A stretch of 9,136 nucleotides of DNA from a virus (taxonomy: Duplodnaviria > Heunggongvirae > Uroviricota > Caudoviricetes), in the IMG/VR virus record IMGVR_UViG_2713896770_000016, positions 1 to 9,136 of that record; one strand, 5' to 3'. A program made the translations under genes and the position numbers. Under the pieces are notes generated by a model. The model had not been told where the DNA came from. It was given only the letters and a program-made list of their open reading frames with translations, and ran no database searches. This document shows, in pieces, positions 1-9,136 of the stretch. Numbering within the stretch: the first letter of the stretch is position 1; every line of letters begins with the position of its first letter.

Positions 1-2138
1 TCATCGGTCATAATGGCAGACTGCGCTTCACGTGATTGCTTCAGCCACCATTTAATGGTGTCACGATCAATGACTCCGCCAGCAGTTTCCAGATCGATAG
101 TCTTACTAAATTCCGGTCCCATATCTCCGGTTTGCGGATCGAAAAATATTGCACCTATTGAGATAATCGGGGCATCAGGATTTTTTCCCATGGTTTCAAG
201 GTCGATCATTAGATGGTCACACGTCCTGCTGGTGGATGTGATAACACGATGACCGTTCACCGTAATTAAGGGATCTGCCGTCTCGCCAGTTTCACTATCG
301 CTGGCGTGATCCTGAGCGCTGCCAGCATTCTCCTTGTGTGGATGTTCAGCGCCTTCCATTTTCTCCGAATCGTCTTCCTGAACTTCAACCTGGTTCTTGT
401 CATCGAATGTTTCCTGGTATGTTGCGTCGCCCATCACCGCACCACAATCAGGGCAGTTGCCACCGCCGGTCTGACCGCAGGCGGTGCAGACTTTTTCCAC
501 TTCCTGTTGCGCCACTGGTTCAGGCTGTTTCGTTTCTGGCTCGTTTTGTAACGCATTTGGGCTGTTTTGTTCCGCTTTCTGGTCGTTCTGTTCCGTTTCT
601 TGCTGGTTCTGGTTCACAGAATCGCGGGTTTCAATCCCCTTCACCCATTTCGGATCATTCGGGTCGCTAATCCCTGCAACAAATTCACCACGTGATGCGG
701 CGAGCAACTGATTGGCGTCAGGCTGGCTGATATTGGCTGCCTGCATAATTTTGTTTACTTCGTCAGCGGTAACTTTTACCGGTTCTGGCTGTGCGGTCGT
801 GTCAGATGCACCAGTATTTTGTTGTGAACCTGAGTATGTACTGTTTTTGCGGGCGAAATATTCTTCTTTCGTGATTTCAGTAGCCCCGGCAGCCAGCGCC
901 TTATCCAGACCAGAAAGTTTGTTTGCGCGACCGTATTTTTCGCCATCCTTGTCGGTGAAGAGGAAGTAGAACGGCCCCTCACGCTCTACAGATGGTTCGA
1001 CTTCCACTTTGCATTCGGTTTTTTCGTTGTCCGGAATTGCCGTTTCCACTGCATCAGTTTCTGGTACTGGCGACGAGAGAGTATCAGTTGCGCTCTGATT
1101 TGTTCCTTCATCTTCAAACACGCCCTTTGTAGTCAGGTATTCAGTAATGTATTTGTTCAGTGCCACAGGATCTTTGTGAATGTCGATCGGACGTTCACGG
1201 ACAAGGCCAAAAATAGTCTGGCGGTCGTAGCGAAGGGCATCAGGCTGTTTGCGCATCGATGCCGAGATACGCTTCCAGTCTTCGCGGTCGTTGTCGATAA
1301 CTTCATTTTTTGCCCAGCGATGGATGCTGCCGTCAATGTTTCCGGCATCCACATCACCAGGCCAGAGAGCGTAGGCCAGTTCGTCATCCAGTGTTTTCCA
1401 TGTCTGCTTATATTCGCGACGAATGACTGCAGTGACAGGGGGGATTTTTTCTGCTGAGTTTTCAGTGTGCTGTCGGTGGACTCTGGCGCGGGCGAGATCA
1501 ACAACAGACGTGTATTTTCCGGTTTCCTTGCGTTCACCTTCGCGACGTTTTTTCCAGATGCGCATTTCTGCCTGAATTTCGGGCCATTTGGCACCAGGCT
1601 TACATTTATGCTTAACCCACCCGATGGCATGCAGCTTAAGCTCCGGATACATGGCGTTAACTTCTGGCATTTTCATCAACGCTTCAACGATATGTCCGTC
1701 GAATGTTGCCATGTCTTCCTGCAACAATTCCTGCGCGCTAATCACCATATCAACGGTGATGTTTTCACATGTGTCGAACTTAACCATGACAGCGTTCTGT
1801 ACTTCAAGGGACAGTTTGTCAAAATTGACGTTCATCGGTTCGGATTCTGGTTCGACCGGAATAAAGGAAGCGGATTCCTCATCCCAGCGGTTTTCCTGCA
1901 TATATTCGGTATCCCAGGAGTCGATAGCAGGGCGGGGCATGCCGGGTTTATCCTCGCAGATAAGAAATTTATAAGCGCAGTCCTGAGCAGCCGGATATTG
2001 CTCCAGGAATTGCCAGGTAAATTTGGCACGGGCGCGGCGTTCGTCGCCAGCTTCAATGGCAGTGGCTACAGCAACTGCACCTTCTTCCTTTATTGCCTGT
2101 TCGTCCGGAATGGCGGCGCAAATAAAGACTTTACTCAT
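1..2138 (-). CDS. recE: RecE-like exodeoxyribonuclease VIII family protein, N-terminal ~712 codons; 3' end runs off the left edge of the window
   Basis: Minus-strand frame opens at ATG 2138-2136 (MSKVFICAAIPDE...) and stayed open in the stretches hand-checked (1-300, 1440-1500, 2100-2138). It is absent from the ORF track, consistent with having no in-window stop. The plus strand over the same span holds only short, mutually tiling shadow ORFs. GAGG lies about 10 nt upstream of the ATG. An internal segment ...LLAASRGEFVAGISDPNDPKWVKGIETRD... resembles what I recall of Rac RecE. No search was run. Confidence 0.7.
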   Translation of the reverse strand, partial: MSKVFICAAIPDEQAIKEEGAVAVATAIEAGDERRARAKFTWQFLEQYPAAQDCAYKFLICEDKPGMPRPAIDSWDTEYMQENRWDEESASFIPVEPESEPMNVNFDKLSLEVQNAVMVKFDTCENITVDMVISAQELLQEDMATFDGHIVEALMKMPEVNAMYPELKLHAIGWVKHKCKPGAKWPEIQAEMRIWKKRREGERKETGKYTSVVDLARARVHRQHTENSAEKIPPVTAVIRREYKQTWKTLDDELAYALWPGDVDAGNIDGSIHRWAKNEVIDNDREDWKRISASMRKQPDALRYDRQTIFGLVRERPIDIHKDPVALNKYITEYLTTKGVFEDEGTNQSATDTLSSPVPETDAVETAIPDNEKTECKVEVEPSVEREGPFYFLFTDKDGEKYGRANKLSGLDKALAAGATEITKEEYFARKNSTYSGSQQNTGASDTTAQPEPVKVTADEVNKIMQAANISQPDANQLLAASRGEFVAGISDPNDPKWVKGIETRDSVNQNQQETEQNDQKAEQNSPNALQNEPETKQPEPVAQQEVEKVCTACGQTGGGNCPDCGAVMGDATYQETFDDKNQVEVQEDDSEKMEGAEHPHKENAGSAQDHASDSETGETADPLITVNGHRVITSTSRTCDHLMIDLETMGKNPDAPIISIGAIFFDPQTGDMGPEFSKTIDLETAGGVIDRDTIKWWLKQSREAQSAIMTD

Positions 2139-2261
2139 TTTGTTTTAACCTCATGACAGATTTAAGGATGAACAAATCCCTGCCATTGCTGGCATATAAG
2201 AATCAAATCTGATGTATTCATTAAGCTGAATGTCGTATTGTGGCAGTTATTTTATTACTGC

Positions 2262-2483
2262 TCACCATGACTCTGCTTTTACAGGTAAACCATCACGACC
2301 AAGGAAGACTTTAATCATGGTTTCCTTAATACAGTGTTGTGTGGAAAAATCACGAATATAGAGCCGTTGTTTTTTAATGTTGTTTACCGAAGCAATATAT
2401 GTTCTTCCTTTATGAATAACATAATCACCGGGAGTCACGCACTGACGAGGAATCTCATCAGTTCCGAAGTGATGAGCAATCAT
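2262..2483 (-). CDS. kilR: KilR-like small protein (73 aa), putative cell-division inhibitor
   Basis: Track ORF 2262..2495 (77 aa). The internal ATG at 2483 is preferred because GGAG sits 6 nt upstream of it, whereas the 2495 ATG has no SD. The product [22 protein letters not shown]... is 73 aa, the length of Rac KilR, and lies immediately upstream of recE-like in the same orientation. The name rests on recalled similarity, not alignment. Confidence 0.5.
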
Positions 2484-2657
2484 AATTATCTCCATTTTTA
2501 CAAATGAACTTTGTTGATGCGGTGCCTGGTGCCTCCAGGTGACGTTAACCAGTTAACAATTAACGCCGGATACAGAGAACCCACCCATAACACTGTTTTT
2601 GGTTTTAACTGTTCCGCGTGCGCTCAGCCGCATTCACCGCATCACAAAACTCACTTT

Positions 2658-2715
2658 AAAAAGGGCGGCAGACCAGTCACGGAGTAAAACTGATACCGCC
2701 AAACGTCACCAGAAA
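2658..2715 (-). ncRNA. dicF: DicF-type sRNA (prophage-encoded, ftsZ-targeting family)
   Basis: Minus strand reads TTTCTGGTGACGTTTGGCGGTATCAGTTTTACTCCGTGACTGGTCTGCCGCCC followed by TTTTT. This matches the 53-nt E. coli DicF RNA as I recall it, apart from about 1 nt. It has a GC-rich 3' stem plus U-tail and occupies the same operon position as in Qin (after the ydfC-like gene, about 175 bp before the next gene). Confidence 0.7.
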
Positions 2716-3056
2716 ATTGATAACAGAGGGCGTTGCAGCGGGGTTGTCACTTAAGCGTATGGTCAACCTGACAACCCGGTGTCCTCAACGGGGGAAGGAA
2801 TAACCCCGCCATACTTACCGCCGCGCCATTTCGCGGATTGCCACAACCGGAAGCGCACGGTCGACGAAAATTTAACGACAGGCTATCTATGAACCAGCTA
2901 CCTCGCCGTGCGCTTTCGCGTTATGGTCTGACTTTTCAGGGAAATATCCTTTCAGTAAACTGTCAGTGCCGGATGCTCACCCGTGTCCGGCGCAAGCACT
3001 CCACCTCACCCGTGGAGAACTCCTTAATTACCAACCTTAGCTTCGTTGGTTAGCTA

Positions 3057-3275
3057 TTAACGCGGGTATGTAATCATTCTGGCAATGGTTAATGCCGCTG
3101 CTTTTTCCAGATTGGTGATATCCTGCTCCAGAGAGGACAGATTTTCAGCCTGCTTAGCCCTGACTTCATTAGCCCATTTCAGATCCTGCGCTGCATTAAT
3201 TTTCTGGTGCATCCACTCATAAAGTTCATCATTGGTATAGTCTGGCGCGATGATGACGGGTTCTCGTTTCTGCAT
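3057..3275 (-). CDS. YdfC-like small prophage protein (72 aa), function unknown
   Basis: Track ORF of 72 aa with GAGG 5 nt upstream of the ATG at 3275. Its size and position (third small gene after the repressor, before dicF) match ydfC of the Qin dicB operon. The sequence looks coiled-coil-like. Identity is inferred from context and length only. Confidence 0.5.
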   Translation of the reverse strand: MQKREPVIIAPDYTNDELYEWMHQKINAAQDLKWANEVRAKQAENLSSLEQDITNLEKAAALTIARMITYPR

Positions 3276-3304
3276 ACTGATTCCTCGCGGTGCTGTTTCG
3301 CTTA

Positions 3305-3433
3305 TCAGCCATTAGATTTTGCCGAACTGGAAAGCACCTGTTTAAATTCGTTGAAGCTGTGAGCTTCTTCGCCTTCGGCAAGGCCTTCGAAGTATTCTTC
3401 GTAAGCCTTTTCCATGATTGTGTCGAAATCCAT
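3305..3433 (-). CDS. YdfB/YdaG-like small prophage protein (42 aa)
   Basis: Hand-translated MDFDTIMEKAYEEYFEGLAEGEEAHSFNEFKQVLSSSAKSNG, with stop TGA at 3307-3305. The ATG at 3433 lies 1 nt after the stop of the upstream gene, suggesting translational coupling. The 42-aa acidic product matches the ydfB/ydaG family in size. The overlapping 69-aa track ORF 3229..3438 in another frame was rejected. Confidence 0.6.
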   Translation of the reverse strand: MDFDTIMEKAYEEYFEGLAEGEEAHSFNEFKQVLSSSAKSNG

Positions 3434-3434
3434 A

Positions 3435-3590
3435 TCACCCACCTGAATTTCTTTCCAGCCAGCGACGCGCTCCAGATTCGGTTTTAAACGTTTTGCTTTT
3501 GGTATACGTCATTGCGGTGAACGTACCGTACTGGTTGGGGAACACGCCACATACCAGAGATTCGCTGTTGCCAAGATCGATAGTATCCAT
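3435..3590 (-). CDS. YdfA/YdaF-like small prophage protein (51 aa)
   Basis: Part of track ORF 3435..3671. The internal ATG at 3590 has GAGG 5 nt upstream and gives MDTIDLGNSESLVCGVFPNQYGTFTAMTYTKSKTFKTESGARRWLERNSGG (51 aa, the size of YdfA/YdaF). A 78-aa version starting at 3671 is an alternative, also with a GAGG upstream. Confidence 0.6.
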   Translation of the reverse strand: MDTIDLGNSESLVCGVFPNQYGTFTAMTYTKSKTFKTESGARRWLERNSGG

Positions 3591-3775
3591 GCTGACCTCA
3601 TTTCCCCTTAACGCCGGGGTAGCGGAACAAAAACCTGCTGCATAGTTATTAAAGTTGAACCCTGCCGTCATGTTCTTACGCCTCGGGCTGGCTACTTAAC
3701 CCCTGACCACTGCCTGGTAACTCGAAGTATTGCCCTGCATTCTGTGGGGCGGGGTGGGTTGGTATGAAAAGAAGG

Positions 3776-3814
3776 ATACCCATAGGTATTTAAAAAGTAA
3801 ATACCCATGGGTAA
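3776..3814. promoter_or_regulatory. Operator pair downstream of the repressor gene (OL-like), probable control region of the leftward early operon
   Basis: Two 14-bp dyads: ATACC-CATA-GGTAT (3776-3789) and ATACC-CATG-GGTAA (3801-3814), centres 25 bp apart. The second contains the perfect 12-bp palindrome TACCCATGGGTA. They share the half-site with the operators at 4295-4347. Confidence 0.5.
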
Positions 3815-3855
3815 ATTTTTGCGGTGTCTTAACTGGTGACTAGTTGTTTGGTGAG

Positions 3856-4275
3856 CTATGATGCGTTTTGTGCTTTCTTTTTACGGATTTCTTCGTAGAT
3901 CATATTGTAATACTGTTTTTTCTCTTCAAGAGTTTTTAATAATTTATCCGCTTCACTTTCTGGCAGTTCGTCTAAGAGATCTAAAAAAATACGTTGTCGT
4001 GGCGTTAGAACCCTTGTTTCATAACTGGAGGCTGTGTTCGTTGATGATGAAACGATACCATCCATCCATCCCCGGGGTAACCCAAAGGACTCTTCGATAA
4101 TCTCCACCATATCATCAGCGATCCGTTTTTTTCCCTTTTTCCCCTCTGGGTACAACATTCTTGATACATAAGAAGGCTCGCGCCCGATCTTTCTGGCCAC
4201 GTTAACCGCTTTACCATCGCATTTCTCATCACGAATTTTGATGAGTTGCTGTCGTCTAAATTCATATTTGTCCAT
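3856..4275 (-). CDS. Prophage repressor, DicA/RacR-like HTH protein (139 aa)
   Basis: Track ORF. The N-terminal region has an HTH-like segment GKAVNVARKIGREPSYVSRML. The C-terminal LTPRQRIFLDLLDELPESEADKLL resembles the DicA C-terminus as recalled. It is divergent from a cro-like gene and flanked by palindromic operators. No SD precedes the ATG, so the mRNA may be leaderless. Confidence 0.8.
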   Translation of the reverse strand: MDKYEFRRQQLIKIRDEKCDGKAVNVARKIGREPSYVSRMLYPEGKKGKKRIADDMVEIIEESFGLPRGWMDGIVSSSTNTASSYETRVLTPRQRIFLDLLDELPESEADKLLKTLEEKKQYYNMIYEEIRKKKAQNAS

Positions 4276-4350
4276 AGGTAAATAATAGATGCGATTACCG
4301 CAAGGTAAACAACCTGTGGGTATTGACTTTTGTTTACCTGTGGGTATTCT
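4268..4350. promoter_or_regulatory. Divergent promoter/operator region (OR-like) between the repressor and cro-like genes
   Basis: Operators TTACC-GCAA-GGTAA (4295-4308), cAACC-TGTG-GGTAT (4310-4323) and TTACC-TGTG-GGTAT (4334-4347), plus a degenerate copy over the repressor start (4268-4281). Rightward promoter candidate: -35 TTGACT 4323-4328, 16-bp spacer, -10 TATTCT 4345-4350. Leftward candidate: -35 TTTACC (complement of 4304-4309), 16-bp spacer, -10 TATTAT (complement of 4282-4287), ending about 6 nt before the repressor ATG. Confidence 0.5.
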
Positions 4351-4375
4351 TTGCTGTGTTTACTAAGGAGTAGCT

Positions 4376-4657
4376 ATGGAAGAATTAAGAATATTTCTCA
4401 ATTCTCTTTCGTCAGATGAACAGCGTATGTTTGCATGCGAGTGTGGTACCAGCATCGGTTATCTAAGAAAGGCATTGAGTAAAGGTCAAGTGTTAGGGGC
4501 ATCGTTATGTGTCCTTATTGAGCGAGCCAGTAATGGTGAAGTTACACGTCAGCAACTAAGGCCTTTTGATTGGATGAATATTTGGCCCGAGCTGGAAGAT
4601 ACCAAAACGTTAACACAACCACTTTCTAGGAGCTTGATTCATGAAAATCAAGCATGA
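4376..4657 (+). CDS. Cro-like regulator, YdaS family (93 aa)
   Basis: Track ORF with AAGGAG 5 nt upstream of the ATG. HTH-like segment CGTSIGYLRKALSKGQ...ASLCVLIERASNGEVT. It is the first gene of the rightward operon, divergent from the repressor. Confidence 0.8.
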   Translation: MEELRIFLNSLSSDEQRMFACECGTSIGYLRKALSKGQVLGASLCVLIERASNGEVTRQQLRPFDWMNIWPELEDTKTLTQPLSRSLIHENQA

Positions 4658-5066
4658 ACACATCCGCATGGCGATGAATGCCTGGGCGCGTCCTGATGGC
4701 GAAAAAGTTCCAGCAGCTGGAATAACCCAGGCTTATTTTGAGTTGGGTATGACGTTCCCAGAACTGTATGACGACAGCCATCCGGAAGCCCTGGCTCGCA
4801 ATACCCAGAAAATTTTCCGCTGGGTAGAGAAAGACACCCCTGATGCTGTTGAAAAAATGCAGGCTCTGTTACCGGCGATCGAAAAGGCGATGCCGCCTTT
4901 GCTGGTGGCCCGTATGCGCAGCCACAGTTCTGAATATTACCGTGAGATCGTCGAACGGAGGGATCGGCTGGTGAAGGATGTCGATGATTTTGTTGCGTCA
5001 GCGGTTGTTTTGTATGACCAGATGAATCGCGGCGGCCCGGCAGGGAATGCTGTGGTGATGCACTAA
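4641..5066 (+). CDS. YdaT-family protein (141 aa), CII-like position
   Basis: Track ORF with AGGAG 8 nt upstream. It starts MKIKHEHI like Rac YdaT as recalled and is about the same length. It overlaps the preceding gene by 17 nt. Confidence 0.8.
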   Translation: MKIKHEHIRMAMNAWARPDGEKVPAAGITQAYFELGMTFPELYDDSHPEALARNTQKIFRWVEKDTPDAVEKMQALLPAIEKAMPPLLVARMRSHSSEYYREIVERRDRLVKDVDDFVASAVVLYDQMNRGGPAGNAVVMH

Positions 5067-5088
5067 AAGCACGGTGTTCGGGGGTTTT

Positions 5089-6051
5089 ATGAGCAGCAAG
5101 CTTCATGGTCTTGTCTGGGAAGGGTGCGCCTTCACCGGCATGATCTTATCCAGGGTGGCGGTTATGGCCCGTCTTGCAGACTACAGCAATGACGAGGGCG
5201 TGTCATGGCCTGCCATTGAAACTATCCGGCGTCAGATCGGTGCAAGAAGTGAATCCACAGTGAAATCGGCTATTGCAGAACTGGCGAAAGAGGGCTGGCT
5301 GACGAAGGAAGAGCGTAAGGTCGGTGGGCGTAATGTAAGCAATATCTATCGGCTTAATGTGGAAAAACTCGAAGCAGCTGCGGCGGCGGCGCGTGAGTCA
5401 TATAAACCGAAAAGAAAAATTAGCCCGGCAAAAAATGACCCGTTAACAGTTGACCCGTCAAATATTGACCCCTCAACGGTTGACCCGTCAAATTTTGATG
5501 GATCAACTGTTGATAAAAAACTGCCGATTAGGGGGGCGATGATTGACCCCGATCCGTCAGTATTAAAACCTGATCCGTCAGATAAAAGATCTTCTTGTCC
5601 GGACGCTTCGCAACCGGACCCGCAGACGGCTGAACAGGATTTTTTAACCCGACACCCTGACGCGGTTGTGTTCAGTGCGAAAAAACGCCAGTGGGGAAGT
5701 CAGGAAGATTTGGTGTGCGCACAGTGGATCTGGGGACGAATCGTGAGTCTTTACGAGCAGGCGGCCAGCTATGATGGCGAGATCACTAGACCGAAAGAAC
5801 CCAACTGGACAGCATGGGCCAATGACGTTCGCACAATGCGGATGCTGGATGGCAGAACTCACAGACAAATTTGTGAAATGTTTGGGCGTCTCCAGCGGGA
5901 TTCGTTCTGGGTAAAAAACATCATGAGTCCGGCAAAACTCCGGGAAAAATGGGATGAACTGGTTATCCGCCTGGGGCGTTCGCCTGCGCAGCGTTGCGTG
6001 AATCACATTTCTGAACCGGACACTGAAATACCGCCGGGATTCAGGGGGTGA
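5089..6051 (+). CDS. Phage replication initiation protein (O-like): N-terminal winged-helix DNA-binding domain, repeat linker, DnaT-like C-terminal region
   Basis: Track ORF 5074..6051, which starts at a GTG. I prefer the in-frame ATG at 5089, preceded by a G-run, though the start is uncertain by 5 codons. The N-terminus LSRVAVMARLADYSNDEGVSWPAIETIRRQIGARSESTVKSAIAELAKEGWL is typical of phage replication-protein HTH domains. It sits directly upstream of a DnaC-like gene and carries an iteron array inside the coding sequence. Confidence 0.85.
   Translation: MSSKLHGLVWEGCAFTGMILSRVAVMARLADYSNDEGVSWPAIETIRRQIGARSESTVKSAIAELAKEGWLTKEERKVGGRNVSNIYRLNVEKLEAAAAAARESYKPKRKISPAKNDPLTVDPSNIDPSTVDPSNFDGSTVDKKLPIRGAMIDPDPSVLKPDPSDKRSSCPDASQPDPQTAEQDFLTRHPDAVVFSAKKRQWGSQEDLVCAQWIWGRIVSLYEQAASYDGEITRPKEPNWTAWANDVRTMRMLDGRTHRQICEMFGRLQRDSFWVKNIMSPAKLREKWDELVIRLGRSPAQRCVNHISEPDTEIPPGFRG
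5435..5524 (+). repeat. Iteron array (about six tandem 15-bp repeats, TTGACCCGTCAAAT-like) inside the initiator gene; putative replication origin
   Basis: Direct repeats at about 5435, 5450, 5465, 5480, 5495 and 5510, each with an internal dyad TTGAC-cc-GTCAA, followed by an A-rich tract (5513-5520). Two further related copies (GATCCGTCAG) lie at 5551-5560 and 5572-5581. In the protein they encode a DPSxx pentapeptide-repeat linker. Confidence 0.6.
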
Positions 6052-6057
6052 CGTGTC

Positions 6058-6804
6058 ATGAAAAACATTGCGGCAGTTGGGGTTCTTGAACGTATTCGCA
6101 GACTTGCACCACAGGGGTCGGTTCCACCGTACCGGACGGTGGAGGAGTGGCGGGAATGGCAACTTGCTGAAGGACGAAAACGCAGCGAGGAGATTAACCG
6201 CCAGAATCGCCAGTTGCGGGTGGAAAAAATCCTGAATCGTTCGGGCATCCAGCCTCTGCACAGCAAATGCTCGTTTGCAAATTATCAGGTGCAGAACGAC
6301 GGGCAAAAATACGCGCTGAGCCAGGCCAAATCCATAGCTGACGAACTGATGACCGGGTGCACGAATTTTGTGTTCAGTGGTAAAACCGGCACCGGGAAAA
6401 ATCACCTTGCAGCGGCGATGGGCAACCGGCTGATGGTGAAGGGGCGCAGCGTGATTATCGTCACCGTGTCTGACGTCATGAGCGTGTTGCATGACAGCTA
6501 CGACAACGGCAAATCCGGGGAAAAATTTTTACAGGAGCTTTGCGGGGTTGATTTGCTGGTCCTGGATGAAATAGGCGTTCAGCGGGAGACGAAAAACGAG
6601 CAGGTGGTATTGCACCAGATAATTGATCGCCGGACAGCATCACTGTGCAGTGTCGGGATGTTAACAAACCTGAATCATGCCGCAATGAGTACGCTTCTTG
6701 GTGAGAGGATTATGGACCGCATGACCATGAACGGTGGTCGATGGGTGACGTTTAACTGGGATAGCTGGCGTCCAAATGTCAGCAATATGAGGGTTGTGAA
6801 GTAA
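6058..6804 (+). CDS. DnaC-like helicase loader (IstB-type AAA+ ATPase), YdaV-like (248 aa)
   Basis: Track ORF with AGGGGG about 9 nt upstream. Walker A motif FSGKTGTGKNHLAAA and Walker B motif LLVLDEIG. Same length as Rac YdaV as recalled. Confidence 0.9.
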   Translation: MKNIAAVGVLERIRRLAPQGSVPPYRTVEEWREWQLAEGRKRSEEINRQNRQLRVEKILNRSGIQPLHSKCSFANYQVQNDGQKYALSQAKSIADELMTGCTNFVFSGKTGTGKNHLAAAMGNRLMVKGRSVIIVTVSDVMSVLHDSYDNGKSGEKFLQELCGVDLLVLDEIGVQRETKNEQVVLHQIIDRRTASLCSVGMLTNLNHAAMSTLLGERIMDRMTMNGGRWVTFNWDSWRPNVSNMRVVK

Positions 6805-6825
6805 TTTTGTCCGGAGGAAATTTTA

Positions 6826-7596
6826 ATGGAAACCGTATCTGACGCACTGAAAGCACTGAAAAAAGCCTCTTCACATGTGGTGGCAGCTCGCCTTGGAATC
6901 AGTCGTGAAGAGGCTGTCAACGAGCTGTGGGAACTCAAAAGAAAAGGCGTCGTTGATAAAACTGGTCACACCTGGTTTCTGGCTGGCGAAGGTGAATCCC
7001 GGGTAACCGAAGAGCGGCCAGTAAAATCTGAAGCACAGGATATGCTGACCGGGGAGGTCGAACAAAAAGTTACCGCAGACATGATGATTGAGTTTATCGG
7101 TCAGGATGGGGCTAAAACGTGTGAGGAACTGGCGGGTAAGTTCGGTGTCAGTACTCGCAAGGTTGCTTCCACGCTGGCGGTGGTAACCGCAACGGGGCGG
7201 CTGGCACGCGTTAATCAGAACGGTAAATTTCGTTACTGCATGCCGGGCGATAATTTACCAGCAGAGCCGAAAGCCGCGCTGGTAACGGAAAGTGATGGTA
7301 AGGCCTTTCCTCAGCCAGCAGGTGCTGCGTTACCAGTCCGGGAAGCCGCAACACAGGAAGAAATTAAAACAGAAACTGTGGCGGACATTGTGCAGCCGTT
7401 GCCATCGTTTACCGAAACGCAAGCAGATGAGCTGATTTTTCCGTCCCTTCGCAGGGCAAACCTGGCGCTGCGCAGGGCGAAAAGTGATGTTCAGAAGTGG
7501 GAGCGAGTCTGCGCCGCGCTGCGGGAGCTGAACAAGCACCGGGATATTGTTCGACAGATTACTGATTCTTCCCGCCGTGTTGTATCGGAAAAGTGA
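6826..7596 (+). CDS. Hypothetical protein (256 aa) with two winged-helix-like modules
   Basis: Track ORF with GGAGG 8 nt upstream. Internally duplicated 50-60 aa segments (residues about 1-55 and 83-140) of the pattern hydrophobic-x-x-L-x-x-x-G-[IV]-S-x-x-x-[VA]. The C-terminal third is basic and helical. No family was recognised with certainty. Confidence 0.7.
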   Translation: METVSDALKALKKASSHVVAARLGISREEAVNELWELKRKGVVDKTGHTWFLAGEGESRVTEERPVKSEAQDMLTGEVEQKVTADMMIEFIGQDGAKTCEELAGKFGVSTRKVASTLAVVTATGRLARVNQNGKFRYCMPGDNLPAEPKAALVTESDGKAFPQPAGAALPVREAATQEEIKTETVADIVQPLPSFTETQADELIFPSLRRANLALRRAKSDVQKWERVCAALRELNKHRDIVRQITDSSRRVVSEK

Positions 7597-7611
7597 TTGC
7601 CGGAGGCGCTT

Positions 7612-8037
7612 ATGGCAAAAGTATTTACACAAGAAGAGCGGGAAAAAATTAAAGGGCAGGTTGTTGAACTTGTACGTCTGAGCGGTCGCGAGACGTTGCG
7701 GCAACTGGAAGCCAAGACAGGTGCGACAAGATATCTGATGAGTGTTCTCGCCAGAGAGCTGGTTGCCAGTGGCGATGTATACAACTCTGGTTACGGGTTA
7801 TTCCCGTCTGAACAGGCGCGTAAGGACTGGCAAAATGCTCGCAAAAAACTCTCAAGGGCAAAGGTGAAGAAACCTGCAGTGGTTGATCCGGACCTTATCT
7901 GGTCGTTACCAGACGGCGAAATACGCCGCTACGACAGGCGCCTGAATATAATCTGTCGCGAGTGCCGGAAGAGCGAAGCTATGCAGCGTGTACTGGCATT
8001 TTATCAAGGAAATGTTAGGTATTTTAGACGTTACTAG
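7612..8037 (+). CDS. Hypothetical protein (141 aa), N-terminal winged-helix-like module, C-terminal basic region
   Basis: Track ORF 7597..8037 begins at a TTG. I prefer the ATG at 7612, which has GGAGG 5 nt upstream. It starts 16 nt after the stop of the previous gene. The N-terminus resembles the modules of the preceding protein. Confidence 0.7.
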   Translation: MAKVFTQEEREKIKGQVVELVRLSGRETLRQLEAKTGATRYLMSVLARELVASGDVYNSGYGLFPSEQARKDWQNARKKLSRAKVKKPAVVDPDLIWSLPDGEIRRYDRRLNIICRECRKSEAMQRVLAFYQGNVRYFRRY

Positions 8038-8190
8038 ATTAAAGAGCATTAGTTCAGATGTGAATTGACATTTTCATGGCGCAGGGTAGAGCCAGCGTGG
8101 TTGTCCGCTTTGCGTCAAAACCAGATATTACCAGATTTAGACATATATTCCCGATAGCCCTGCTCTGATGCTACACTCTGTGCTATTTTC

Positions 8191-8877
8191 ATGACCCCAA
8201 TAAAAATATTTATGACTATTGCTGATTTCAAACGGCCTAAATTGGAGCTCCCAAACGGGGCAAACAAACTACTACTGCACTCTTGCTGTGCTCCATGTTC
8301 CGGTGAAGTGATGGAGGCGCTTCAGGCCTCGGGAATCGACTACACCATCTTTTTCTACAACCCGAACATTCATCCTCAGAAAGAGTATTTAATTCGTAAG
8401 GATGAAAATATTCGCTTTGCTGAACAACACGGCGTGCCGTTTATCGATGCTGATTACGACACCGACAACTGGTTTGAACGTGCCAAAGGAATGGAATGGG
8501 AGCCTGAGAGGGGGATCCGTTGTACCATGTGTTTTGACATGCGTTTTGAGCGGACAGCGTTGTACGCTGCTGAAAATGGTTTCAGTGTGATCAGCAGTTC
8601 ACTGGGCATTTCACGCTGGAAAAATATGCAGCAGGTTAACGAGTGTGGGCGGCGAGCTGTTGCGCATTATCCGGGTATGGTGTACTGGGATTATAACTGG
8701 CGCAAGCAGGGCGGCTCGTCCCGTATGATTGAAATCAGCAAGCGCGAAAAATTCTATCAGCAGGAATATTGTGGCTGTGTGTATTCTCTGCGCGATACCA
8801 ATCTACACCGCAAATCTCAGGGACGCCCTCTTATCAAAATTGGCCAACTCCACTACGGAAAAGAAGAGAAGGAGTGA
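8191..8877 (+). CDS. QueH-like (DUF208-type) putative Fe-S protein, possible epoxyqueuosine reductase homologue (228 aa)
   Basis: Track ORF. N-terminal [12 protein letters not shown] followed by FFYNPNIHP, and later RCTMC and EYCGCVYS cysteine motifs. I recognise this pattern as DUF208/QueH, not confirmed by search. It follows a 153-bp intergenic region with extended -10-like TGcTACACT (8169-8177) and TGcTATTTT (8181-8189). No SD precedes the ATG. Confidence 0.75.
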
Positions 8878-9136
8878 TTTTATGGATCACCTTTCTGATT
8901 GATTTCATATTGGCGAGGTGACGTGAGTTAAGTAGAATGGCTGCGGGTGCTTGAGGCTATCTGTCTCAGGCATGAACACTGAAAGGCAGATAGAGAAAAG
9001 CCCCAGTTAACATTTCGCGTCCTGCAAGACGCTTAACATTAATCTGAGGCCCAATCTATGTCTCACAAATGTAGGTTAGCCTCTTACGTGCCGAAAGGCA
9101 AGGGGAAGCAGGCTATTGTTAACACCAAGCTGTAAT

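Follow-up and report, generated by a model that had tools for sequence, protein, structure and literature searches.

Two TACC-N4-GGTA dyads as probable left operators of an unannotated Escherichia coli prophage repressor

Introduction

In bacteriophage lambda, the repressor CI recognizes 17-bp sites, and three such sites make up the left operator (OL). The rexAB genes and the terminator tImm lie between the repressor gene and OL, OL and the right operator (OR) are 2.3 kb apart, neighboring sites are separated by ~24–25 bp, and CI at OR2 is positioned at about −42 relative to the repressor promoter PRM. Phage 933W has five naturally occurring repressor sites, three in OR and two in OL (PMC3317979). 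In the Qin prophage of Escherichia coli K-12, DicA represses the promoter dicBp ~22-fold, and operators resembling those of lambda PL have been reported there (PMC10448788), while in CP-933P of E. coli O157:H7 the leftward promoter PL933P, whose operators are like those of PR and PRM, is repressed ~100-fold by PaaR2 and YdaS (PMC8630535). DicA and RacR are members of a group of short, antirepressor-controlled repressors (PMC3121763), and it is antirepressors, not cleavage, that inactivate the short repressors of the DicA/RacR/Gifsy group (PMC3121763, PMC10448788). Here we describe two inverted repeats (dyads) at positions 3776–3814 of a 9,136-bp stretch of viral DNA (hereafter the window; IMG/VR virus record IMGVR_UViG_2713896770_000016, positions 1–9,136), which were originally predicted from the sequence to be an OL-like operator pair. 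Our analyses indicate that they are very probably the left operators of an unannotated, 139-amino acid (aa) E. coli prophage repressor and that they would control the promoter of an operon encoding cell-division inhibitors.

Results and Discussion

Dyads on Both Sides of the Repressor Gene

The two left-hand dyads are situated between the stop codon of the repressor gene (3856) and a ydfA-like gene (3435–3590). The promoter-proximal, OL1-like dyad (ATACCCATAGGTAT, 3776–3789) and the promoter-distal, OL2-like dyad (ATACCCATGGGTAA, 3801–3814) each contain an exact match to the core TACCNNNNGGTA (TACC-N4-GGTA), at 3777–3788 and 3802–3813, respectively, and their centers are 25 bp apart. The core at 3802–3813, TACCCATGGGTA, is a perfect 12-bp palindrome with the NcoI site CCATGG inside it. 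The pair starts 43 nucleotides (nt) after the repressor stop codon, so that the gap between the stop codon and OL2 is 42 nt. A search near the pair for a third left site, in which up to two mismatches to the core were allowed, found none.

On the other side of the repressor gene, the 100-bp region between this gene and a cro/YdaS-like gene contains two further exact cores (4296–4307 and 4335–4346) and the best one-mismatch core (4311–4322). As judged by motif matches and offsets, the corresponding OR region (4295–4347) comprises OR3 (4295–4308), OR2 (4310–4323, with one core mismatch) and OR1 (4334–4347), whose centers are spaced by 15 and 24 bp and which are found at −32, −47, and −71 from the repressor ATG, respectively. 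The commonest half-site is ATACCCA (5 of the 10 half-sites), and the dyad at 3801–3814 thus matches the ideal palindrome ATACCCATGGGTAT at 13 of 14 positions. In total, four exact cores are present in the 9,136-bp window, compared to 0.06 expected, and all four flank the repressor gene; none of 200 shuffles reached this number. The original prediction had placed two dyads with 25-bp center spacing between the repressor stop codon and the ydfA-like gene, had described one of them as a perfect 12-bp palindrome with an NcoI site, and had assigned their half-site to three dyads across the repressor gene as well, all of which is confirmed by the coordinates given above.

Co-occurrence with the Repressor DNA-Binding Domain

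For comparison, 44 loci were picked by the DNA-binding domain of the repressor alone. They included 41 genome loci from one-genome-per-species contigs, the phages mEp043 and CharmingMan, and the window itself, with proteobacterial hosts in Escherichia, Klebsiella, Edwardsiella, Pantoea, Yersinia, Aeromonas, Neisseria, Burkholderiales, and Xanthomonadales. In 38 of the 44 loci, the 110 bp preceding the repressor ATG contain at least two dyads with no more than one mismatch, and their offsets are nearly fixed (−72/−73, −47/−48, and −32/−33). A downstream pair with a spacing of 24–26 bp was found in 33 of the 44 (25–26 bp in 32), from 43 to ~2,170 bp past the stop codon, while such a pair appeared in shuffled 3-kb stretches in 5 of 2,000 trials. 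Neither the bases flanking the dyad nor its central four bases were used for selection, and yet both are constrained: of 171 sites, 170 and 164 have A or T at the two flanking positions, 155 have a pyrimidine as the first central base, and 157 have a purine as the last. Given these preferences, the operator consensus of the family is W-TACC-YNNR-GGTA-W, which agrees with the 14-bp (A/T)TACC-N4-GGTA(A/T) dyad on which the original prediction was built. With its three upstream dyads and its downstream pair, the window fits the mEp043-type CI cassette, in which a DNA-binding domain of the phrog_5736 type is combined with W-TACC-N4-GGTA-W operators. The persistence of the dyads in homologous immunity regions with the same repressor domain strongly supports the view that the operator sequence, i.e., the immunity specificity, follows the DNA-binding domain of the repressor.

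The dyad is wholly absent from two Advenella loci (L042 and L046) and from a Nitrosomonas locus (L026), which are the most divergent (38–42% identity) or atypical relatives and in which the specificity may have changed. In relatives whose repressors are of the S24 type, a third inverted repeat, TTACCTG-N10-CAGGTAA, is found between the terminator of the cI operon and the OL pair (L003, 4552–4575; L014 and L017, 3744–3767; L023, 1801–1824). It has the same half-site as the dyad and is 10 bp wider (TACC-N14-GGTA); this wider repeat was not found in the window.

The module at 3766–4375 is present in 822 of 5,426 complete E. coli genomes, including those of CFT073 and of O157:H7, O145, and O111 strains. 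Among five aligned E. coli variants, the TACC and GGTA arms, the −35 hexamer and the −10 hexamer of the promoter described below are all invariant. Variation is seen in the center of the dyads, where one has CATA, CGCG, TATG, or CATG and the other has CATG or CGTG. Invariant arms with a variable center are the pattern expected if the repressor contacts the arms and not the center. In one relative, E. coli JNEC-KY180 (L047), a short tandem repeat of GGTTGTTT-like units makes the gap between the repressor stop codon and OL2 ~24 bp longer.

We also considered that the dyads might be palindromes that arose by chance or in connection with a restriction site and have no regulatory role, given that one of them holds an NcoI site and that short inverted repeats are common in A+T-rich DNA between genes. 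This is extremely improbable, as it is contradicted by the four exact cores against 0.06 expected and by the recurrence of the pair, which 33 of the 44 independently chosen loci carry and which 5 of 2,000 shuffles produced. In addition, the hexamer CCATGG is not conserved among the E. coli copies while the arms are. A meaningful NcoI site was therefore rejected; with variable central bases between constant arms, the site is incidental.

A Predicted Leftward Promoter in Register with the Pair

The minus strand of the left-hand region reads ...AAAAATT TACCCATGGGTA TTTACT TTTTAAATACCTATGGG TATCCT TCTTTTC A... A promoter of the PL/dicBp type is predicted here (3773–3801, minus strand), with the −35 hexamer TTTACT (3801–3796), a 17-bp spacer, and the −10 hexamer TATCCT (3778–3773). 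The −35 hexamer comes directly after OL2, the −10 hexamer begins at the TA of OL1's GGTA so that OL1 overlaps the −10 hexamer and the spacer, and the predicted start is near A3765, the seventh base past the −10 hexamer.

The same register recurs among the 33 related pairs. A hexamer like TTGACA, TAGACA, TTGACT, TTGATT, TTTACT, or TTTATT comes immediately after the first dyad in 32 of them, and the six bases at this place match TTGACA at a mean of 4.4 of 6 positions, compared to 1.6 in the other direction. Most pairs (23) have a 17-bp spacer, nine have one of 18 bp, and one has a spacer of 16 bp, and the −10 hexamer (TATATT, TATTCT, TAATAT, and similar) begins at the TA of the second dyad's GGTA. 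The second dyad holds the OL1 position in 33 of the 44 related loci. A match of at least 8 of 12 positions to the promoter consensus in the direction of the repressor gene was found in 29 of the 33 pairs. In 20 of the 33 pairs, the 15 nt preceding the first dyad include a run of four or more A, which may act as an UP element; on the other side, such a run is present in 5 of 33. In the record of mEp043, a putative PL is annotated at the pair, and the DNA after it (cATCAGCAGGACGCAC...AAGCCCTGAA) presumably matches the PL leader of lambda with nutL. At the level of sequence, the pair thus overlaps a predicted σ70-like leftward promoter that would read away from the repressor gene and into the early-left genes.

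Several points weigh against the interpretation of the pair as operators of a leftward promoter. The promoter hexamers of the window are weak, matching the consensus at 8 of 12 positions, which is below the threshold of the consensus scan, so that the promoter was not reported by the scan. The 37-bp region is nearly palindromic, and its opposite strand is consequently just as promoter-like (TTTAAA-17-TAAATT, 8 of 12). The left side holds two operator sites and not the three of lambda. Moreover, 11 of the 44 related loci are without the downstream pair, although some of them are cut by contig ends or have a more divergent domain. With regard to the number of sites, three left sites are not universal, since 933W also has five natural sites in all (PMC3317979).

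The promoter-like match on the opposite strand raises the possibility that the promoter under the dyads fires on the plus strand, so that the 3′ end of the repressor gene would be transcribed in antisense, as the hexamers of the two strands score equally. We consider this highly unlikely, because among the 33 related pairs a match of this quality in that direction was found once only, in the window itself, and because both the family-wide −35 signal (4.4 versus 1.6) and the A runs upstream of the first dyad (20/33 versus 5/33) are one-directional. The mosaic junction and the conserved leader on the ydfA side, which are described next, also argue against a plus-strand promoter.

Immunity Modules Exchanged on a Shared Leader

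The phages Tritos, Evi, 689R5, 640R1, and 683R6 share 88–99% identity with the leader/ydfA side of the window. The similarity ends at ~3760–3765, beyond which the repressor differs, and each of the five carries its own inverted repeat on both sides of its own repressor gene. Tritos has a CI with a different helix-turn-helix (HTH) domain and the repeat GTAC-N5-GTAC; 689R5 has a 214-aa repressor and the repeat TCTAA...TTAGA; 640R1 has a 199-aa repressor and the repeat TGTTTT...AAAACA; and 683R6 has an annotated Rac repressor and the repeat TAGGC-N3-GCCTA. Evi encodes a 123-aa repressor, followed by two further small annotated genes, and carries GTTTAGT repeats; from these repeats and its gene order, Evi appears to be of the PaaR2 type while sharing the leader of the window up to the junction. 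TACC-N4-GGTA was not found in the corresponding region of Tritos or in the dicC-dicA-ydfA region of Qin.

The homology of these five phages with the window resumes at ...ATACCAACCCACC, which is the predicted leftward start. Thus, the promoter and the operators belong to an exchangeable immunity module, while the transcript belongs to a common backbone. The leader of the early-left, dicBF-type transcript (3591–3765, minus strand), with the mosaic junction at its predicted start, is nearly unchanged in phages of other immunity types.

A Hairpin in the Repressor-Sense Transcript

In the transcript of repressor sense, the two dyads and a 4-bp pairing between them (TTTA/TAAA) form a hairpin (3777–3813, minus strand) with a stem of 16 bp and a loop of 5 nt, which is reported by a terminator-like scan and is followed by the U-rich stretch UCCUUCUUUUC. 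It folds with an energy of about −22 to −23 kcal/mol (z = −5.1). We therefore weighed whether the 37-bp region, alone or additionally, is an intrinsic terminator or insulator that keeps PRM transcripts out of the toxic DicF/kil operon. The co-directional DicF/kil operon starts ~90 nt past the repressor stop codon, and no other terminator was found in the 42 nt between this stop codon and OL2. In eight relatives with gaps of 69–130 nt (among L012, L014, L015, L017–L020, L030, and L032), as in mEp043 and CharmingMan, the repressor operon is separated from the pair by a canonical G+C-rich terminator. The extra 4-bp spacer pairing is not required by operators.

Any palindrome present in two copies, however, will form such a pairing by itself. 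The stem is A+T-rich, with G-C at 5 of its 16 pairs, and UCC stands at the beginning of the tail. The tail after the hairpin, UCCUUCUUUU in the window and UCCUUCCUUU in the other E. coli copies, is even poorer in U in those copies (UCCUUCCUUUC). No compensatory change was observed among the E. coli copies, in which substitutions in the center give mismatches. The spacer complementarity is confined to this E. coli type and absent from the other 32 pairs, and L021, which has the same 42-nt gap, is without the spacer-pairing extension. The U-rich stretch is also the start region of the predicted promoter, and the Klebsiella relatives have a similar one. On balance, a terminator or insulator function of the region is unlikely. 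The same holds for a dual-purpose element that would serve as OL1/OL2 at the DNA level and whose 16-bp hairpin would terminate or insulate the leaderless repressor transcript at the RNA level, an arrangement that we regard as doubtful; if it existed, it would be a compact version that, unlike its relatives, needs no separate terminator before the toxic DicF/kil operon. Bound repressor acting as a roadblock at the same place could also protect the downstream operon.

Predicted Right-Hand Promoters and the Shared Layout

Two promoters were predicted on the right-hand side by the promoter scan. The PR-like promoter, TTGACT-16-TATTCT (4323–4350, plus strand), would drive the cro/YdaS-like and YdaT/CII-like genes. 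The PRM-like promoter, TTTACC-16-TATTAT (4282–4309, minus strand), has its predicted start on the A of the repressor ATG (4275), which implies a leaderless repressor mRNA, and no Shine-Dalgarno sequence was found upstream of this ATG. The layout of PRM and ATG is conserved in the relatives from E. coli to Xanthomonas. Leaderless repressor mRNA has been reported for lambda cI and paaR2 (PMC8630535).

The register at PR is the same as that at the left promoter, with the GGTA of OR2 followed by TTGACT-16-TATTCT. The −35 hexamers abut a dyad at both PR and PRM, such that OR2 is flanked by the −35 hexamers of the two promoters. As read from these sequences, the left region in essence repeats the half of the right region that comprises OR1, OR2, and PR, without OR3 and PRM.

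The Repressor

The repressor (WP_000362153; 139 aa; 3856–4275, minus strand) was assigned to phrog_5736, "transcriptional regulator," in PHROGs (E = 6e-70), while a Pfam search gave no family and a sequence search of PDB gave nothing meaningful. It consists of an N-terminal HTH domain and a DicA-like C-terminal domain and has no S24 peptidase domain. In a database search, residues 1–75 (MDKYE..REPSYVSRMLYPEGKKGKKRIADDM..LPRGWMDG) recurred at 65–82% identity in two kinds of proteins. Proteins of the first kind are short (133–139 aa) and have the same C-terminal domain; those of the second kind are 221–242 aa, contain an S24 peptidase domain, and include the CI of mEp043 and the corresponding protein of CharmingMan.

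In the AlphaFold model (mean predicted local distance difference test score [pLDDT] 86.8), the N-terminal domain has five helices with pLDDT above 90, the linker (residues 76–87) is disordered, and the C-terminal domain is a helical hairpin. In a fold search, the N-terminal domain superposed on C.Esp1396I (TM 0.65–0.70; 2.2–2.6 Å) and further matched HigA, the CI of TP901-1, and the N-terminal domain of lambda repressor. The model thus indicates an HTH of the lambda-repressor/XRE type. The best overall structural match, the antirepressor-controlled Rep of Salmonella phage SPC32H (PDB 5d50), is weak (E = 1e-3, 17% identity).

Similarity to DicA is limited to the C-terminus, where residues 89–134 align with 33% identity. 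The NCBIfam DicA model scored 24.5 bits, compared to a cut-off of 101, on the C-terminus only. Because only C-terminal residues align and the score is below the cut-off, the repressor was rejected as a DicA orthologue. The C-terminal domain (3856–4010) is closer to that of the CI of Tritos (L005) than to that of DicA, while the N-terminal HTH domains and the operators of the window and Tritos differ, a combination that suggests exchange of the DNA-binding domain together with its operators around a shared C-terminal domain. The repressor of 933W was also rejected as a relative of this DNA-binding domain, as it was not among the tblastn matches; where the record of mEp043 mentions 933W, the C-terminal domain is probably meant. 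Neither the operator motif nor WP_000362153 was found in open-access full text, and a literature search on mEp043 found no paper on its operators by title or abstract. As far as found in the open-access literature, this operator specificity is undescribed.

Proposed Mechanism

We propose that in a lysogen dimers of the 139-aa repressor would bind OL1 and OL2, probably cooperatively given their 25-bp spacing, and that the divergently encoded Cro/YdaS-like protein would probably bind both sites, too. As OL1 would span the spacer and the beginning of the −10 hexamer, its occupancy should exclude RNA polymerase and silence the ydfA-ydfB-ydfC-DicF-kil-exonuclease operon, with OL2 abutting the −35 hexamer of the leftward promoter. 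Relative to the predicted start, the center of OL1 would be at about −17.5, where bound repressor would block RNA polymerase, and that of OL2 at about −42.5, the position of lambda CI at OR2 relative to PRM. Given the DicA-like C-terminal domain of the repressor and its lack of an S24 peptidase domain, relief of repression would more likely involve an antirepressor or a Cro-type switch than self-cleavage stimulated by RecA.

Genomic Setting

Over the stretch compared (3400–4700), the window is 100% identical to a prophage of the bovine E. coli strain F2_407_2_2. In the RefSeq record of this prophage, the leftward genes encode integrase, excisionase, exonuclease, kil, a dicB remnant, ydfC, a ydfB-like protein, and DUF1391/ydfA, next to which the gene for the 139-aa repressor is labeled "hypothetical protein"; the rightward genes encode a transcriptional regulator, a YdaT-family protein, replication proteins, QueH, and hokD. 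The ydfA-like gene (3435–3590, minus strand; Pfam DUF1391, E = 1.3e-25) is the first gene of the operon predicted to be controlled. It is followed, in the order given by the identical RefSeq record, by the ydfB-like gene, ydfC, the small RNA DicF (2663–2714, minus strand; 74 bits in Rfam), the dicB remnant, kil, and the exonuclease gene. The operator pair lies between the repressor gene and this dicBF-type operon, both of which are transcribed in the same direction. On the plus strand, a cro/YdaS-like gene (4376–4657) and a YdaT/CII-like gene (4641–5066) were recognized by family assignment. Given the gene order, the family assignments, and DicF, the region is the immunity region of a Qin/Rac-like lambdoid prophage.

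Three other features were observed in the window. The sok antitoxin RNA (8945–9117, plus strand; 116 bits in Rfam) adjoins hokD. The repeat TTGATT-CATGAA-AATCAA (4634–4651) spans the start codon of the YdaT/CII-like gene (ATG 4641) and is the YdaT site TTGATT-N6-AATCAA of CP-933P, as quoted in PMC11879457. Within the repressor gene, several database proteins (e.g., P0010, 136 aa) begin with the translation of an out-of-frame open reading frame (4005–4265, minus strand) and then continue in the repressor frame; these proteins are frameshifted copies without the DNA-binding domain.

Comparison with Known Systems

The known picture of lambdoid immunity is unchanged by these findings. The sites supply a concrete and testable operator code, W-TACC-YNNR-GGTA-W, for a repressor that is annotated as hypothetical, and they would identify the switch that keeps the small RNA DicF, Kil, and neighboring early genes silent. 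The cassette, consisting of the DNA-binding domain, three right and two left sites, and a leaderless PRM, shows unusually wide conservation, which extends from E. coli to Neisseria, Burkholderiales, and Xanthomonadales. Its partner is in some cases a self-cleaving S24 domain and in others a short DicA-like one, which points to a natural exchange of induction modules around a fixed DNA-recognition module.

Judged by sequence and position, the element appears to belong to the general OL/PL kind that is represented by OL/PL of lambda, dicBp of Qin, and PL of CP-933P. The lambda OL/OR-like arrangement put forward in the original prediction is supported in that the half-site is shared, the dyads accompany the DNA-binding domain, and the promoter has the register seen at PR and in the related pairs. 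As in lambda, the left dyads share their half-site with OR, are located downstream of the repressor gene, and overlap the leftward early promoter; neighboring sites are similarly spaced, the PRM-derived repressor mRNA would be leaderless, and a dimer at O2 would be at about −42 of the flanking promoters. In contrast to the 17-bp sites and three OL sites of lambda, the window has a 14-bp W-TACC-N4-GGTA-W dyad and two OL sites. Its OL comes 42 nt after the repressor stop codon with neither rexAB genes nor tImm between them, OL and OR are ~0.5 kb apart instead of 2.3 kb, and the repressor is without the self-cleaving S24 domain of its lambda counterpart.

The arrangement of three right and two left sites is shared with 933W. 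The DNA-binding domain of 933W, however, is another one, its dyad is 15 bp with an odd center, and its repressor is of the cleavable S24 type.

In Qin, dicBp is at the homologous position, with the order repressor gene, promoter, and ydfA-ydfB-ydfC-dicF, and DicA is likewise a short, non-cleavable repressor whose C-terminal domain resembles that of the window repressor. The DNA-binding domains of the two are not alignable, their operators differ, and the intergenic DNA aligns near ydfA only. Since the two systems differ in their DNA-binding domain as well as in their operator sequence, the left pair was rejected as a DicA operator.

CP-933P belongs to the same prophage family, and its PL is probably at the homologous position. 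Its operators, in contrast, are based on GTTTAGTAA and include three OL sites, its repressor is unrelated, and a toxin-antitoxin pair lies between its repressor gene and PL. With GfoR/GtgR of the Gifsy phages, Rep of SPC32H, and RacR, the window repressor shares a length of ~130–160 aa, an HTH at the N-terminus, and the lack of a peptidase domain, while the operator of the RacR-type phage 683R6, TAGGC-N3-GCCTA, differs from the W-TACC-YNNR-GGTA-W of the window and its relatives.

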